From: Promethearchaeia archaeon
GTDB taxonomy: Archaea; Asgardarchaeota; Lokiarchaeia; Sigyniarchaeales; SOKP01
DNA: 64,000 bases
Assembly: GCA_029856145.1 (NCBI GenBank)
Contig: JAHQWK010000001.1
Span: forward strand, 160,001 to 224,000
Direction of reading: 5' to 3'
In this document: piece by piece, positions 22,126-25,540 of the stretch
Layout: each line of letters starts with the position of its first letter
Position numbering within the stretch: position 1 is the stretch's first letter
Notes under the pieces: generated by a model
What the model was told of the DNA's origin: nothing
Databases searched by the model: none
What the model saw: the letters and a program-made list of their open reading frames with translations, nothing else
Program-made: the position numbers and the translations under genes

Positions 22126-22890
22126 ATGAAAGAAGAAAAACCGAAATATGGCTGGTATGTGAAGAATCTAATTATTGGATTTAATATTATAGGGCTACTT
22201 GGAATAACTGCTTTTATTTATGGATTTCTAATAAATGGCTTATTGAAGATTATTCTATTAATTTCAGGATTAGCAATAATACTAGTATTTTTATGGCCAG
22301 GCATCGGAATGGTCATGATGCATCTATTATTATTAGGTAGAATATATTTAGTATCAAAAATGAAGGGATTAGATGAAATTGAAAATCCCCAAATTTTAGA
22401 CGTAGGTTGTGGAACTGGAAGAACTGCGATAAGAATTGCAAAAGAGTTAAAAAACGGAGGACATTTATATGGGATTGACATTTATTCGAAATTAGCAATT
22501 CAGGGTAATGCTTTAGATACAGTACAAAACAATGCTCACATTGAAAAAGTTGAAAATAAAACTACTTTTCAATATGGATCAGCGACAGATATTCCATTCG
22601 AAGATGAGAAGTTTGACATCGTGAATGCTTCTTCAGTCCTTCATGAAGTTCATGACTCAAACGGACAAGAGAATGCAATGCAAGAAATTTACCGTGTTTT
22701 AAAACCTGGGGGATGTTTTTACTTGAGTGAATGGAACCGCACATCATGGCAATGTGTTGCTATCGGTGGCTTATGTTGTTTTGCGTTTAAGAAAAAAGAT
22801 CACTGGAAAACTTTATTAGAAAAATATAATTTCAAGGAAATTACATACGAGACCACCGCAGGTTTTGGGATTTTTACAGCTAAAAAATAA
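22126..22890 (+). CDS. Membrane-anchored class I SAM methyltransferase
   Basis: Two N-terminal TM helices; ILDVGCGTG, FEDEKFDIV, EIYRVLKPGG. Confidence 0.88.
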   Translation: MKEEKPKYGWYVKNLIIGFNIIGLLGITAFIYGFLINGLLKIILLISGLAIILVFLWPGIGMVMMHLLLLGRIYLVSKMKGLDEIENPQILDVGCGTGRTAIRIAKELKNGGHLYGIDIYSKLAIQGNALDTVQNNAHIEKVENKTTFQYGSATDIPFEDEKFDIVNASSVLHEVHDSNGQENAMQEIYRVLKPGGCFYLSEWNRTSWQCVAIGGLCCFAFKKKDHWKTLLEKYNFKEITYETTAGFGIFTAKK

Positions 22891-23035: not shown

Positions 23036-24460
23036 ATGGATTCTGAAGCAGAAGAGACATTAACAATCATTGCTGAGAGAGCACAGTTAGCTGAAGGCAT
23101 TGAAGGCGTTCGATCAATTCTACTAACAATGTATCGCTTTCCTTCCCTTAAAAACAAAAAAGTGGCCCAAAAAACAGGAATTGCAATTCCTACAATTTCA
23201 GCTGTTAGAGGGGAATTAGTTAAATCCGGGATTATTGAGAAGAGAAACTTTCTCGGAGAAATAGGAAGAGAATGGGTTAAGACAAAATTGAATTTAACCT
23301 TTGATTATGATCCTCTTCCTGAAACCTTTAACAACATAATAAAAGAGTTACCCGAAGAATTTACATACTTAAATAATTTGAAAAGTTTACTTAAGAATAG
23401 ACCAACTCCAGAATATGCTCTTGATCAATCTCATGCAGATTTCTCTACAATAATAAAGAAAACATTATATTTACTAAAAAAAGGGGATATTGAAGGAAGA
23501 AGGATTATTTTTTTAGGTGATGATGATGCTATATCGTTAGCTGTAGGGTTAACTAATTTATCAAATGAAATCCTTGTTTTGGATATAGACAATAGAGTTT
23601 TAGATTTTATCTCCCAATCAGCAGAAGAACTTTCATTAAAGAATTTTAATGTTCTATCTCATGATTTAAAAGAACCATGTCCTAACATTATCATTAATAA
23701 TTACGATGTTGTTGTAATGGACCCCCCTTATACTAATGAAGGCTTAAGATTATTTTTAAAAAGAGCTGGACAAGTGTTAAAGTCATATATTAAAATAAAT
23801 GATAAGATTCATCCCGTAATTGGCAAAAAATGCCTTCTTAGTTTTGGAAATAAACCTCCAGAGGAAATGCAGAAATTGCAAACGTCAATTTTAGATCATA
23901 GCTTTATTATTAATGAAATGATCCCTGATTTTAATCACTATGAGGGTGCAAGTATAATTGGTAAATTTAGTCACCTCTACTACCTACAATCTATAATAAA
24001 TTCAAACATTGAACCAACAATTAATTATACTACACGCCCTATATACACTTCCGAAGTAAGATCTATAACTGAGTATCCCTTTAGACCTGTTGGATTTCAC
24101 TTTGTGGGAGAAATGCACTTTTCAAACCAAGAATTACTCTTGGAAAATGATAATATACAGAAAATATTTATAGACTCTCTTACATTCGCAGATTTAACAA
24201 TTCTCGATGTATATCATCATAATTACCATCCATATGGATACAGTGCTATTGCGATTTTGAAAACAAGTCATGCGGCTATCCATACTTGGCCAGAACATGG
24301 ATATATTAGTATTGACATTTTTATATGTGAAGGATACTCTAAAGGATTAAAAGTTATAAAATTCTTAAAGAATAAGTTAAATCCTGAAAAATTTGAATTT
24401 TCATATGTAGAACGTGGTAAACAAACAACCATGAAATATAAACCAGTTGAAGTAGAATAA
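23036..24460 (+). CDS. bpsA: Branched-chain polyamine synthase (BpsA/DUF43) fused to a pyruvoyl-dependent AdoMetDC-like (SpeD/SpeH) domain
   Basis: BpsA motifs LDQ, GDIEGRRIIFLGDDD, LDID, DPPY, FNHY; C-terminal GYSAIAILKTSHAAIHTWPEHGYISIDIFIC. Confidence 0.87.
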   Translation: MDSEAEETLTIIAERAQLAEGIEGVRSILLTMYRFPSLKNKKVAQKTGIAIPTISAVRGELVKSGIIEKRNFLGEIGREWVKTKLNLTFDYDPLPETFNNIIKELPEEFTYLNNLKSLLKNRPTPEYALDQSHADFSTIIKKTLYLLKKGDIEGRRIIFLGDDDAISLAVGLTNLSNEILVLDIDNRVLDFISQSAEELSLKNFNVLSHDLKEPCPNIIINNYDVVVMDPPYTNEGLRLFLKRAGQVLKSYIKINDKIHPVIGKKCLLSFGNKPPEEMQKLQTSILDHSFIINEMIPDFNHYEGASIIGKFSHLYYLQSIINSNIEPTINYTTRPIYTSEVRSITEYPFRPVGFHFVGEMHFSNQELLLENDNIQKIFIDSLTFADLTILDVYHHNYHPYGYSAIAILKTSHAAIHTWPEHGYISIDIFICEGYSKGLKVIKFLKNKLNPEKFEFSYVERGKQTTMKYKPVEVE

Positions 24461-24481: not shown

Positions 24482-25540
24482 TCATTTCGGTAATTTTTCG
24501 AATTCTTCACGTGTTCCATAAAATCGTTTGATAAGGTCTTCATCATTTCTTTTAATAGCTTTTAGAGGTTCAGACATTCTTAATAAATAATTTTTTATGA
24601 CTCTTTTGGGTAATATTTTAGTTGCTAATTTTAATGAAGTAAGTACGCATTCTTTAACGGCATCAAAATGCTCTTTTAGACCCTCTCTTTGAAAATGAAG
24701 GAGTTCTTCAAGTATATCTCCATCTACATAATATCCACAATGAAAATTTCTTGTAGCAAATGCGTTTTCGGGAATTAAATTTGGATCTAATCCAAAGATT
24801 TTAAAATTAGCTTTTAAATAATCCCTAGCTATTATTCGGCATTTCTCTCCACCTGAAAGGTTATAAATATTTCCAACTAATTCATCACACTCAATAGCTT
24901 GAACTAATGCATATCCTGTATCTGTATTGCGGCAAATCTCCAATGAAGTATCCAAGGGCAAATGAAACATTATAGGTTGTATTTTCATTCTTGGATTCAT
25001 TATAGCTGTTAATCTGAAAATAGTCCATTCTAAATTTGAACTTTGAATTAATTTCTCAGCTTCAATTTTAGTTACTGAATATTTATCTCCCATACTAGGA
25101 TTGAAGGGATCACCTACTCTAATCTTTGGATTCTTTATTCGATCTCCATAAACAGAGATTGATGATGTGTATATAAGCCGTGGTTTTTTATTTTGTACTT
25201 CAATAGCTTTAATAATGTTTTCGGTTCCTCCTGTATTTATTTTCCATGCTTCTTCAGGGAATTTGTCTGCTGCAGGAGGTATCAATGCACCTATATGTAA
25301 GACTACATCTATTTCGTTTACTGCTGTTAATACTTCATCGTAATTTCTTAAGTCTCCCCAGATAACTTTGATTTGTTTTATATAGCGTTTAGCAATTTTC
25401 TTGCGGTTTATCTTATTCAAGGAATCATACTTTAGGTCAAAAACTCTTATATCATAATTACTTCTTCTTACTAATTCTTTAAGAGTCTCAATTCCAACCT
25501 CTCCAAAAGCACCTGTCAACAGTATTTTTTTTCTTGTCAT
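24482..25540 (-). CDS. Extended SDR / NAD-dependent epimerase-dehydratase
   Basis: LTGAFGEVG, YTSSISVYG, YSVTK. Confidence 0.9.
   Translation of the reverse strand: MTRKKILLTGAFGEVGIETLKELVRRSNYDIRVFDLKYDSLNKINRKKIAKRYIKQIKVIWGDLRNYDEVLTAVNEIDVVLHIGALIPPAADKFPEEAWKINTGGTENIIKAIEVQNKKPRLIYTSSISVYGDRIKNPKIRVGDPFNPSMGDKYSVTKIEAEKLIQSSNLEWTIFRLTAIMNPRMKIQPIMFHLPLDTSLEICRNTDTGYALVQAIECDELVGNIYNLSGGEKCRIIARDYLKANFKIFGLDPNLIPENAFATRNFHCGYYVDGDILEELLHFQREGLKEHFDAVKECVLTSLKLATKILPKRVIKNYLLRMSEPLKAIKRNDEDLIKRFYGTREEFEKLPK

Follow-up and report, generated by a model that had tools for sequence, protein, structure and literature searches.

A conserved protein joining a BpsA-family domain to a class 1b S-adenosylmethionine decarboxylase domain in Asgard archaea: a candidate self-contained aminopropylation module

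Architecture of the fusion gene

The window analysed here is a stretch of 64,000 nucleotides from a Promethearchaeia archaeon (assembly GCA_029856145.1, contig JAHQWK010000001.1, positions 160,001 to 224,000), and it contains a gene in which a domain of the branched-chain polyamine synthase family (BpsA; DUF43) is joined to a class 1b S-adenosylmethionine decarboxylase (AdoMetDC) domain. The gene is a single open reading frame (ORF) of 474 amino acids (aa) plus the stop codon with no internal stops, and the predicted mass of the whole proenzyme is 54.3 kDa (Table 1). Pfam matches BpsA_C in the middle of the ORF (E = 3e-43) and AdoMet_dc near its C-terminus (E = 3e-27), where profile positions 1-107 are completely covered, and gives a weak match of the winged-helix family HTH_24 to aa 26-68. 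The ORF scores 95.5 bits against PF02675 (cut-off 25) and 91.6 bits against the NCBIfam model TIGR03330 (SAM_DCase_Bsu, the AdoMetDC equivalog; cut-off 75.65). Among solved structures, the region of aa 111-249 matches the Thermococcus kodakarensis BpsA (Tk-BpsA, 5xnc), and that of aa 351-463 matches the AdoMetDCs of Aquifex and Thermotoga. All motif positions were verified codon by codon. An earlier reading of the letters alone (the sequence-only reading) had described one ORF with a helix-turn-helix (HTH)-like segment, the GDDD and DPP motifs and an AdoMetDC-like domain, and every one of these observed details was correct.

We also examined an AlphaFold2 (AF2) model built from 85 sequences, which has a mean predicted local distance difference test score (pLDDT) of 90.7 and a predicted template modelling score (pTM) of 0.72. 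Only aa 324-330 and 345-349 have a pLDDT below 50, and the N-terminal domain is helical with a pLDDT of 90-97. In VIA-align, aa 97-343 superpose on residues 93-349 of 5xnc_B over 230 residues (Z 27.9, root-mean-square deviation (rmsd) 2.6 Å, 27% identity), and the PIYTSE helix in the linker lies on the C-terminal lid of BpsA. The region of aa 350-465 superposes on the T. maritima AdoMetDC 1vr7 over 116 residues (Z 17.1, rmsd 2.1 Å) as one intact domain.

Table 1 Coordinates of the fusion gene and its features in the window
Feature	Position	Strand	Evidence
Whole ORF	23036..24460	+	Translation; full-length homologs
N-terminal winged-helix domain, aa 1-104	23036..23347	+	Family profile vs 5xnc/2qm3; AF2 model
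DUF43/BpsA_C class I Rossmann transferase core, aa 112-317	23369..23986	+	Pfam; superposition on 5xnc_B
GDDD motif, aa 161-164	23516..23527	+	Codon check; invariant 122/122
DPPYT motif, aa 229-233; D229 = Tk-BpsA D225	23720..23734	+	Alignment; conservation
Linker, aa 318-350	23987..24085	+	41% identity, low pLDDT
P-I-Y-T-S-E motif inside linker, aa 335-340	24038..24055	+	Alignment; superposition on BpsA C-terminal lid
Class 1b AdoMetDC (SpeD/SpeH) domain, aa 355-461	24098..24418	+	Pfam, TIGR03330, superposition on 1vr7
Predicted self-cleavage site Thr410/Ser411	24263..24268	+	Codon check; alignment; conservation
His416 = T. maritima H68	24281..24283	+	Spacing Ser+5; kept 121/122
Cys431 = T. 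maritima C83	24326..24328	+	Spacing Ser+20; kept 122/122

Conservation of the fusion

A word-indexed search recovered more than 120 full-length homologs with 66-96% identity, all of which contain both Pfam domains. They come from metagenome-assembled genomes (MAGs) of Loki/Promethearchaeota, Thor, Hermod and Hod archaea in independent assemblies, including contigs of up to 3.3 Mb and another of 2.3 Mb, and single-contig genomes also encode more divergent full-length fusions. An assembly chimera, the error that the sequence-only reading had considered, is ruled out by these full-length fusions on independent contigs and by closed genomes that carry the fusion. The joining of the BpsA-family and class 1b AdoMetDC domains is therefore real and conserved.

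In an alignment of 122 members of this clade (62-96% identity), the residues invariant in all members are D130, Q131, the GDDD motif, D185, D210, D224, the DPPYT motif, F299, N300 and Y302 on the transferase side, I336, Y337 and T338 in the linker motif, and T410, S411, H412 and C431 on the decarboxylase side; E340 and H416 are each kept in 121 of the 122. The mean identity is alike in the N-terminal, transferase and decarboxylase parts (73-76%) and falls to 41% in the linker. Because these residues are invariant and the two halves are equally conserved, both halves, together with the threonine directly before the predicted cleavage serine (position -1), are under purifying selection.

No conserved operon partners of the fusion were found in the window or in two closed Asgard genomes, in which the fusion is a stand-alone gene among unrelated neighbours. 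In the window, a gene for a membrane-anchored class I methyltransferase lies upstream (22126-22890 (+)) and a convergent NAD-dependent epimerase/dehydratase-like gene lies downstream (24482-25540 (-)), and neither gene is retained beside the fusion in other genomes.

The transferase half compared with BpsA

The transferase half shares with the BpsA structures (T. kodakarensis 5xnc; T. thermophilus 6j27) a winged-helix N-domain followed by a DUF43 Rossmann core. In 5xnc, the alignment with the family profile starts at chain residue 20 (and runs to 311), and in 2qm3 it starts at residue 24, so that it reaches the N-terminal part of both; the HTH-like segment is therefore the ordinary BpsA N-terminal domain and not an added regulator. 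The profile also matches the winged helix-turn-helix (wHTH) domain of ScaR/SloR. In Tk-BpsA, the GDDD motif positions the aminopropyl group of decarboxylated S-adenosylmethionine (dcSAM), the acceptor is bound by D225, E259, Y290 and Y316, and a flexible acidic cluster at the C-terminus (E339, D342-E345) carries the aminopropyl group in a proposed ping-pong mechanism (2026 review, PMC12979288). The GDDD motif and the DID and D210 cofactor contacts are common to BpsA and the window protein, and two of the acceptor residues have predicted counterparts here, D229 for D225 and Y302, the tyrosine of an FNxY motif, for Y290.

In contrast, the other BpsA features are altered, at a core identity of ~27%. 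By alignment, E259 of Tk-BpsA sits in an insertion that is missing from the window subfamily, and the ~18-residue loop bearing Y316 appears to be deleted. The DPPET motif of Tk-BpsA is DPPYT here, with tyrosine in place of glutamate. The acidic carrier tail ELYDDEE is replaced by PIYTSE, which has one conserved glutamate (E340) against five acidic residues and is followed by the AdoMetDC domain; the host, moreover, is a mesophile that lacks the spermidine synthase SpeE, as described below. The difference is also evident in the scores: the window ORF matches 5xnc with 92 bits over 139 residues only (aa 111-249), whereas a true Asgard BpsA (L015:3993-5084), which ends in ELYEDEE and has an adjacent speD gene, matches it with 379 bits over the entire length. 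Another Asgard family with a true BpsA has a speD-speE-bpsA cluster.

The closest unfused relatives are proteins of ~390 aa that carry a CxxC...CPxC zinc (Zn) ribbon after a conserved IYTGE motif (for example L009:3412-4590 and L011:4888-6036), and the ribbon occupies the exact place that the AdoMetDC domain takes in the fusions. Judged by these alignments, the transferase half belongs to a separate DUF43 subfamily and is not an ortholog of BpsA (N4-bis(aminopropyl)spermidine synthase, EC 2.5.1.128). The name 'branched-chain polyamine synthase' given in the sequence-only reading thus goes too far, in view of the 92 bits against 379, the missing carrier tail, E259 and Y316 loop, and the absence of SpeE.

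The decarboxylase half and its cleavage site

The decarboxylase domain is a full-length relative of the class 1b AdoMetDCs of T. maritima (1tlu/1vr7) and A. aeolicus (2iii), with 28-30% identity and an rmsd of 2.1-2.3 Å to the T. maritima structures. The predicted cleavage site reads LKT/SHAAIHTWPEHG here and LAE/SHISIHTWPEHG in the Aquifex AdoMetDC 2iii. Ser411, His416 (+5) and Cys431 (+20) match S63, H68 and C83 of T. maritima AdoMetDC with equal spacing, and Li et al. 2023 (PMC10407285) describe these three residues as essential for processing and catalysis. The SH and HTWPE motifs are kept and AdoMetDC-like. The differences are threonine for glutamate at position -1 and the junction of the N-terminus to a 350-aa transferase, so that the predicted beta chain would have 410 aa.

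The codons at the site are ACA for Thr410 (24263-24265) and AGT for Ser411 (24266-24268), in agreement with the KT-SH in place of E-SH, and the serine codon at 24266, of the sequence-only reading. Thr410 is found in 122/122 members, at a position where glutamate is usual in AdoMetDC. Other fused Asgard branches have glutamate (Odin, Hod and the divergent family f24) or, in one genome (G239), serine; in the tree described below, threonine at -1 is a derived state. The chain that begins at Ser411 would have 64 aa (7.5 kDa), which is the length given in the sequence-only reading, although its release from the enzyme is not expected. The alpha and beta chains of a class 1b AdoMetDC, which is active as a dimer, remain parts of a single fold, and the model shows one domain.

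PMC10407285 bears on the threonine as well. A proline distinguishes AdoMetDC from the arginine decarboxylases that arose from it, and the SpeD-derived ornithine decarboxylases (SpeDC) are marked by Gln, Thr, Phe and Tyr, the ornithine decarboxylase (ODC) domain reading Q-L-I-E-T-S-L-x-S-G-H-F in Fig. S5, from which we took the marker positions. In D. phosphitoxidans, the pyruvoyl-forming serine S229 is preceded by threonine (ET/S) and self-processing was confirmed by an S229A mutant, so a Thr/Ser site is known to self-process. Against the markers as given in that figure, the window domain has the threonine and lacks Gln, Phe and Tyr (1/4), and both candidate AdoMetDC-type prolines are present, P399 (in P-x-G) and P419 (of WPE).

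Polyamine genes and growth temperature of the host

The genome assembly that contains the window is 3.55 Mb long and 97% complete. It has one AdoMet_dc match and one BpsA_C match, both of which are the window fusion; with no second AdoMetDC in the genome, any dcSAM must come from the fusion. SpeE was not found in this genome, as the sole Spermine_synth match is a generic methyltransferase (26 bits; 19 bits against PRK00811, cut-off 260), and so spermidine, the BpsA substrate, has no SpeE-dependent source. The genome encodes pyruvoyl arginine decarboxylase (PdaD) and agmatinase, which means that agmatine and putrescine can be made; a pyridoxal phosphate (PLP)-dependent ornithine decarboxylase was not found in the 97% complete assembly. 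With an AdoMetDC-like motif, no other source of dcSAM and PdaD already encoded, AdoMetDC is the best assignment of the decarboxylase domain, to judge from sequence and gene content.

The genome also has two deoxyhypusine-synthase homologs (G000:C4:20351-22137 and G000:C9:564124-565959), one immediately downstream of the agmatinase gene and the other divergent from PdaD. Agmatine-linked hypusination may be the role of one of them, and a different aminobutyl transfer that of the other.

By its GC contents the host is a mesophile: 29.9% for the genome, 48% for a partial 16S and 57% for tRNAs (11 tRNAs found, intron-containing ones missed). The IVYWREL proteome formula gave 56 °C, which we discarded as an artefact of the 30% GC.

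Distribution across Asgard archaea

We surveyed 301 Asgard genomes, grouped by families (Table 2). A strong SpeE match is almost never present in lineages that have the fusion or its unfused relative, and is present in those with a true BpsA. In the host's own family, four SpeE matches are moderate (93-124 bits), three of them in fusion-bearing genomes.

Table 2 Forms of DUF43, SpeD and SpeE in Asgard families
Family	DUF43 form	SpeD	SpeE
f1 (own family)	Fused in 29/68	Solely within fusion	Mostly weak matches
f24	Divergent fusion, 34-37% identity, canonical E/SH, 20/21	Within fusion	Strong match 1/21
f29	Zn-ribbon relative	Directly upstream	No strong match
f7	Zn-ribbon relative	Not found (0/28)	No strong match
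f10, f17, f19, f21, f22 and others	True BpsA	Present	Strong matches

The subfamily with DPPYT and PIYT(S/G)E occurs fused to SpeD, next to speD, or as a Zn-ribbon protein whose gene neighbours one for a PLP decarboxylase. The last arrangement is seen in f7, where the unfused wHTH-DUF43-Zn-ribbon gene (L011:4888-6036 (-)) divergently adjoins a gene of the PLP Orn/Lys/diaminopimelate (DAP)-decarboxylase fold (L011:6138-7412 (+)), and the pair is conserved in at least 26 of 31 genomes. The partner has ~430 aa and scores 230 bits against the lysA model, below the cut-off of 298. This pairing ties the subfamily to amine metabolism. Neither SpeE nor an AdoMetDC of the SpeD type was found in f7. Class 2 AdoMetDC was not found there either, which is weak evidence because the controls for this class gave no match. 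The f7 protein is a DUF43 enzyme without a recognised source of dcSAM.

In f29, the unfused wHTH-DUF43-Zn-ribbon gene is immediately preceded by a gene for a stand-alone SpeD (L009:3017-3397 (+), L020-L027). This SpeD reads ILKE-T-HISxHTWPE, with threonine for serine at the pyruvoyl-forming position in 9/9 genomes of two genera, and it keeps His+5 and Cys+20 and scores 117 bits against TIGR03330. By its sequence, it may have a natural Thr-derived (2-oxobutyryl) cofactor or be an inactive enzyme.

Fusions in other lineages

An exhaustive search of 50%-identity representatives returned 1,133 proteins at E <= 1e-10 and revealed several further DUF43-SpeD fusion clades. A bacterial clade of 436-445 aa contains the cultured Vagococcus fluvialis and Erysipelothrix, a clade of 500-564 aa includes a Lachnospiraceae MAG, and in a clade of ~440 aa the cleavage sites have T, N, Q or A before S-N. 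In two proteins the order is reversed and SpeD comes first. The DUF43 family and the fusion are not traits of thermophiles, and the surprise that the sequence-only reading had voiced at a non-thermophilic host dissolves, as both are common in mesophiles (V. fluvialis, Erysipelothrix, Lachnospiraceae). In V. fluvialis (CP122523.1), a gene for a 144-aa GNAT acetyltransferase (L032:8362-8796) follows the fusion gene after 24 nt and possibly encodes a polyamine N-acetyltransferase; this gene and, in Erysipelothrix, a TetR gene are the sole neighbours of note beside the bacterial fusions.

A quick tree of the DUF43 core placed all Asgard fused forms together (SH-aLRT 84) and grouped G239 with the window clade (99). 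A single origin of all fusions was not supported by this tree, in which the bacterial and 'S-N' clades are placed elsewhere and the backbone is poorly resolved; the separate placement of the clades fits repeated fusion. Joined DUF43 and SpeD domains recur in several distinct clades, in either order, and in other Asgard families the two are encoded by adjacent genes, a Rosetta-stone pattern that argues for functional coupling.

The nearest precedent is the bacterial AdoMetDC-SpeE fusions, the ancestors of animal spermine synthase, for which both activities were shown experimentally (PMC12803844). They likewise place a dcSAM producer and a dcSAM consumer on one polypeptide, but with SpeD before SpeE and a Spermine_synth-family transferase, whereas the order is reversed here and the transferase is of the DUF43 type. 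A DUF43/BpsA-SpeD fusion, or a BpsA homolog from Asgard archaea, was not found described in the literature searched, where the bare name DUF43 matches DUF43xx names instead.

Proposed function and alternative explanations

From the domains, conserved residues, distribution and genome content we infer self-cleavage, the two activities and the acceptor. The gene product is probably a bifunctional enzyme, a self-contained aminopropylation module that both generates dcSAM and passes its aminopropyl group on. In the C-terminal class 1b AdoMetDC domain, self-cleavage between Thr410 and Ser411 would convert Ser411 to the pyruvoyl group. It would split the protein into a beta chain of 46.8 kDa (wHTH, DUF43 and the leading half of SpeD) and an alpha chain of 7.5 kDa, which would remain bound in one fold in an enzyme that acts as a dimer. 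The SpeD domain would decarboxylate S-adenosylmethionine (SAM) to dcSAM. The DUF43 domain would then bind dcSAM via GDDD, D185 and D210, transfer the aminopropyl group to an amine at D229/Y302 and release methylthioadenosine. The acceptor would most plausibly be agmatine, putrescine or a product derived from them, as suggested by the absence of SpeE and of any other AdoMetDC and the presence of PdaD and agmatinase; the window enzyme would then be the sole aminopropyltransferase of the cell and not a BpsA that branches spermidine made by SpeE.

We further suggest, tentatively, that the wHTH-DUF43 subfamily with DPPYT and PIYT(S/G)E might be a second, SpeE-independent family of primary aminopropyltransferases, which would carry out the first aminopropylation, to spermidine or N1-aminopropylagmatine, in the Asgard lineages without SpeE, with the Thr/Ser site as an adaptation of the fused decarboxylase.

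Four observations weigh against a module that makes and uses dcSAM. The acidic carrier of the BpsA ping-pong mechanism is down to one glutamate, and the chemistry may differ. The confirmed self-processing with threonine at -1 comes from an AdoMetDC-derived ornithine decarboxylase and not from an AdoMetDC. Several genomes of the same genus, 96-99% complete, are without the fusion, SpeD and SpeE, indicating that the product is accessory or dispensable and not housekeeping spermidine. Finally, f7 has the unfused relative and no recognisable AdoMetDC, so that dcSAM use may not extend to the subfamily as a whole.

Among the alternatives, a true BpsA that aminopropylates N4 of spermidine to branched-chain polyamines, with dcSAM from the fused SpeD, has the BpsA structures as the best structural and sequence matches on its side, as well as the retained GDDD, D225 and Y290 equivalents and the superposition of the PIYTSE helix on the BpsA lid. 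We nevertheless consider it unlikely: without SpeE, spermidine could come only by import or from the same enzyme, the match to 5xnc is partial and far below that of the Asgard BpsA, and the E259 insertion, the Y316 loop, four of the five acidic tail residues and the DPPET glutamate are gone, in a mesophilic host. Less likely still is a DUF43 domain whose aminopropyl acceptor is a macromolecule or an amine other than a polyamine, for example a base in a nucleic acid or a side chain of a protein. DPPY is typical of N6-adenine and N5-glutamine methyltransferases, the further weak Pfam/NCBIfam matches of the ORF are N6-adenineMlase and HemK, the next structural neighbours of the core in VIA-align are METTL5 and PH1948 (Z 19-20), and the protein has an N-terminal wHTH while its unfused relatives have a C-terminal Zn ribbon. 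However, the wHTH is common to real BpsA, BpsA scores 7 Z units higher than the RNA methyltransferases, genes of the subfamily lie beside one for a PLP amino-acid decarboxylase in f7 and beside speD in f29, and nucleic-acid-modification genes are absent nearby.

The two remaining explanations concern the decarboxylase half. The sequence-only reading had suggested that the glutamate-to-threonine change could alter the substrate; the threonine is real, and SpeD neofunctionalisation is widespread according to PMC10407285, in which threonine at -1 is one of the four SpeDC diagnostic residues and directly precedes the pyruvoyl-forming serine of the validated D. phosphitoxidans SpeD1SpeD2. A pyruvoyl arginine or ornithine decarboxylase that supplies the acceptor instead of the donor is nonetheless very improbable. 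As far as the published figure allows the comparison, SpeDC has Q..ETSLxSGHF and is without SH and WPE, whereas the window domain lacks the Gln, Phe and Tyr markers and is AdoMetDC-like in SH, in the proline of HTWPE and in that of P-x-G. It also exceeds the TIGR03330 equivalog cut-off, the sister fused clades have the canonical E/SH, PdaD and agmatinase are already encoded, and the GDDD transferase would be left without a source of dcSAM. The AdoMetDC-like domain of animal spermine synthase lost its AdoMetDC function and is essential for dimer formation (PMC12803844), and the SpeD domain could by analogy be a non-catalytic scaffold or dimerisation domain; S411, H412 and C431 are, however, invariant, H416 is kept in all members but one, and the genome has no other AdoMetDC for dcSAM, which makes this explanation highly improbable.

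Implications

Asgard archaea are the prokaryotes most closely related to eukaryotes, and their polyamine synthesis is essentially uncharacterised. In the survey, many Loki-type genomes are without spermidine synthase, and the fusion is their only predicted aminopropyl route; its current annotation, 'adenosylmethionine decarboxylase', hides the transferase half. Since the cultured V. fluvialis and Erysipelothrix share the architecture, the question is directly testable. A DUF43 half that accepted agmatine or putrescine would represent a new family of primary aminopropyltransferases, and 'BpsA-like' would then imply neither thermophily nor branched polyamines.

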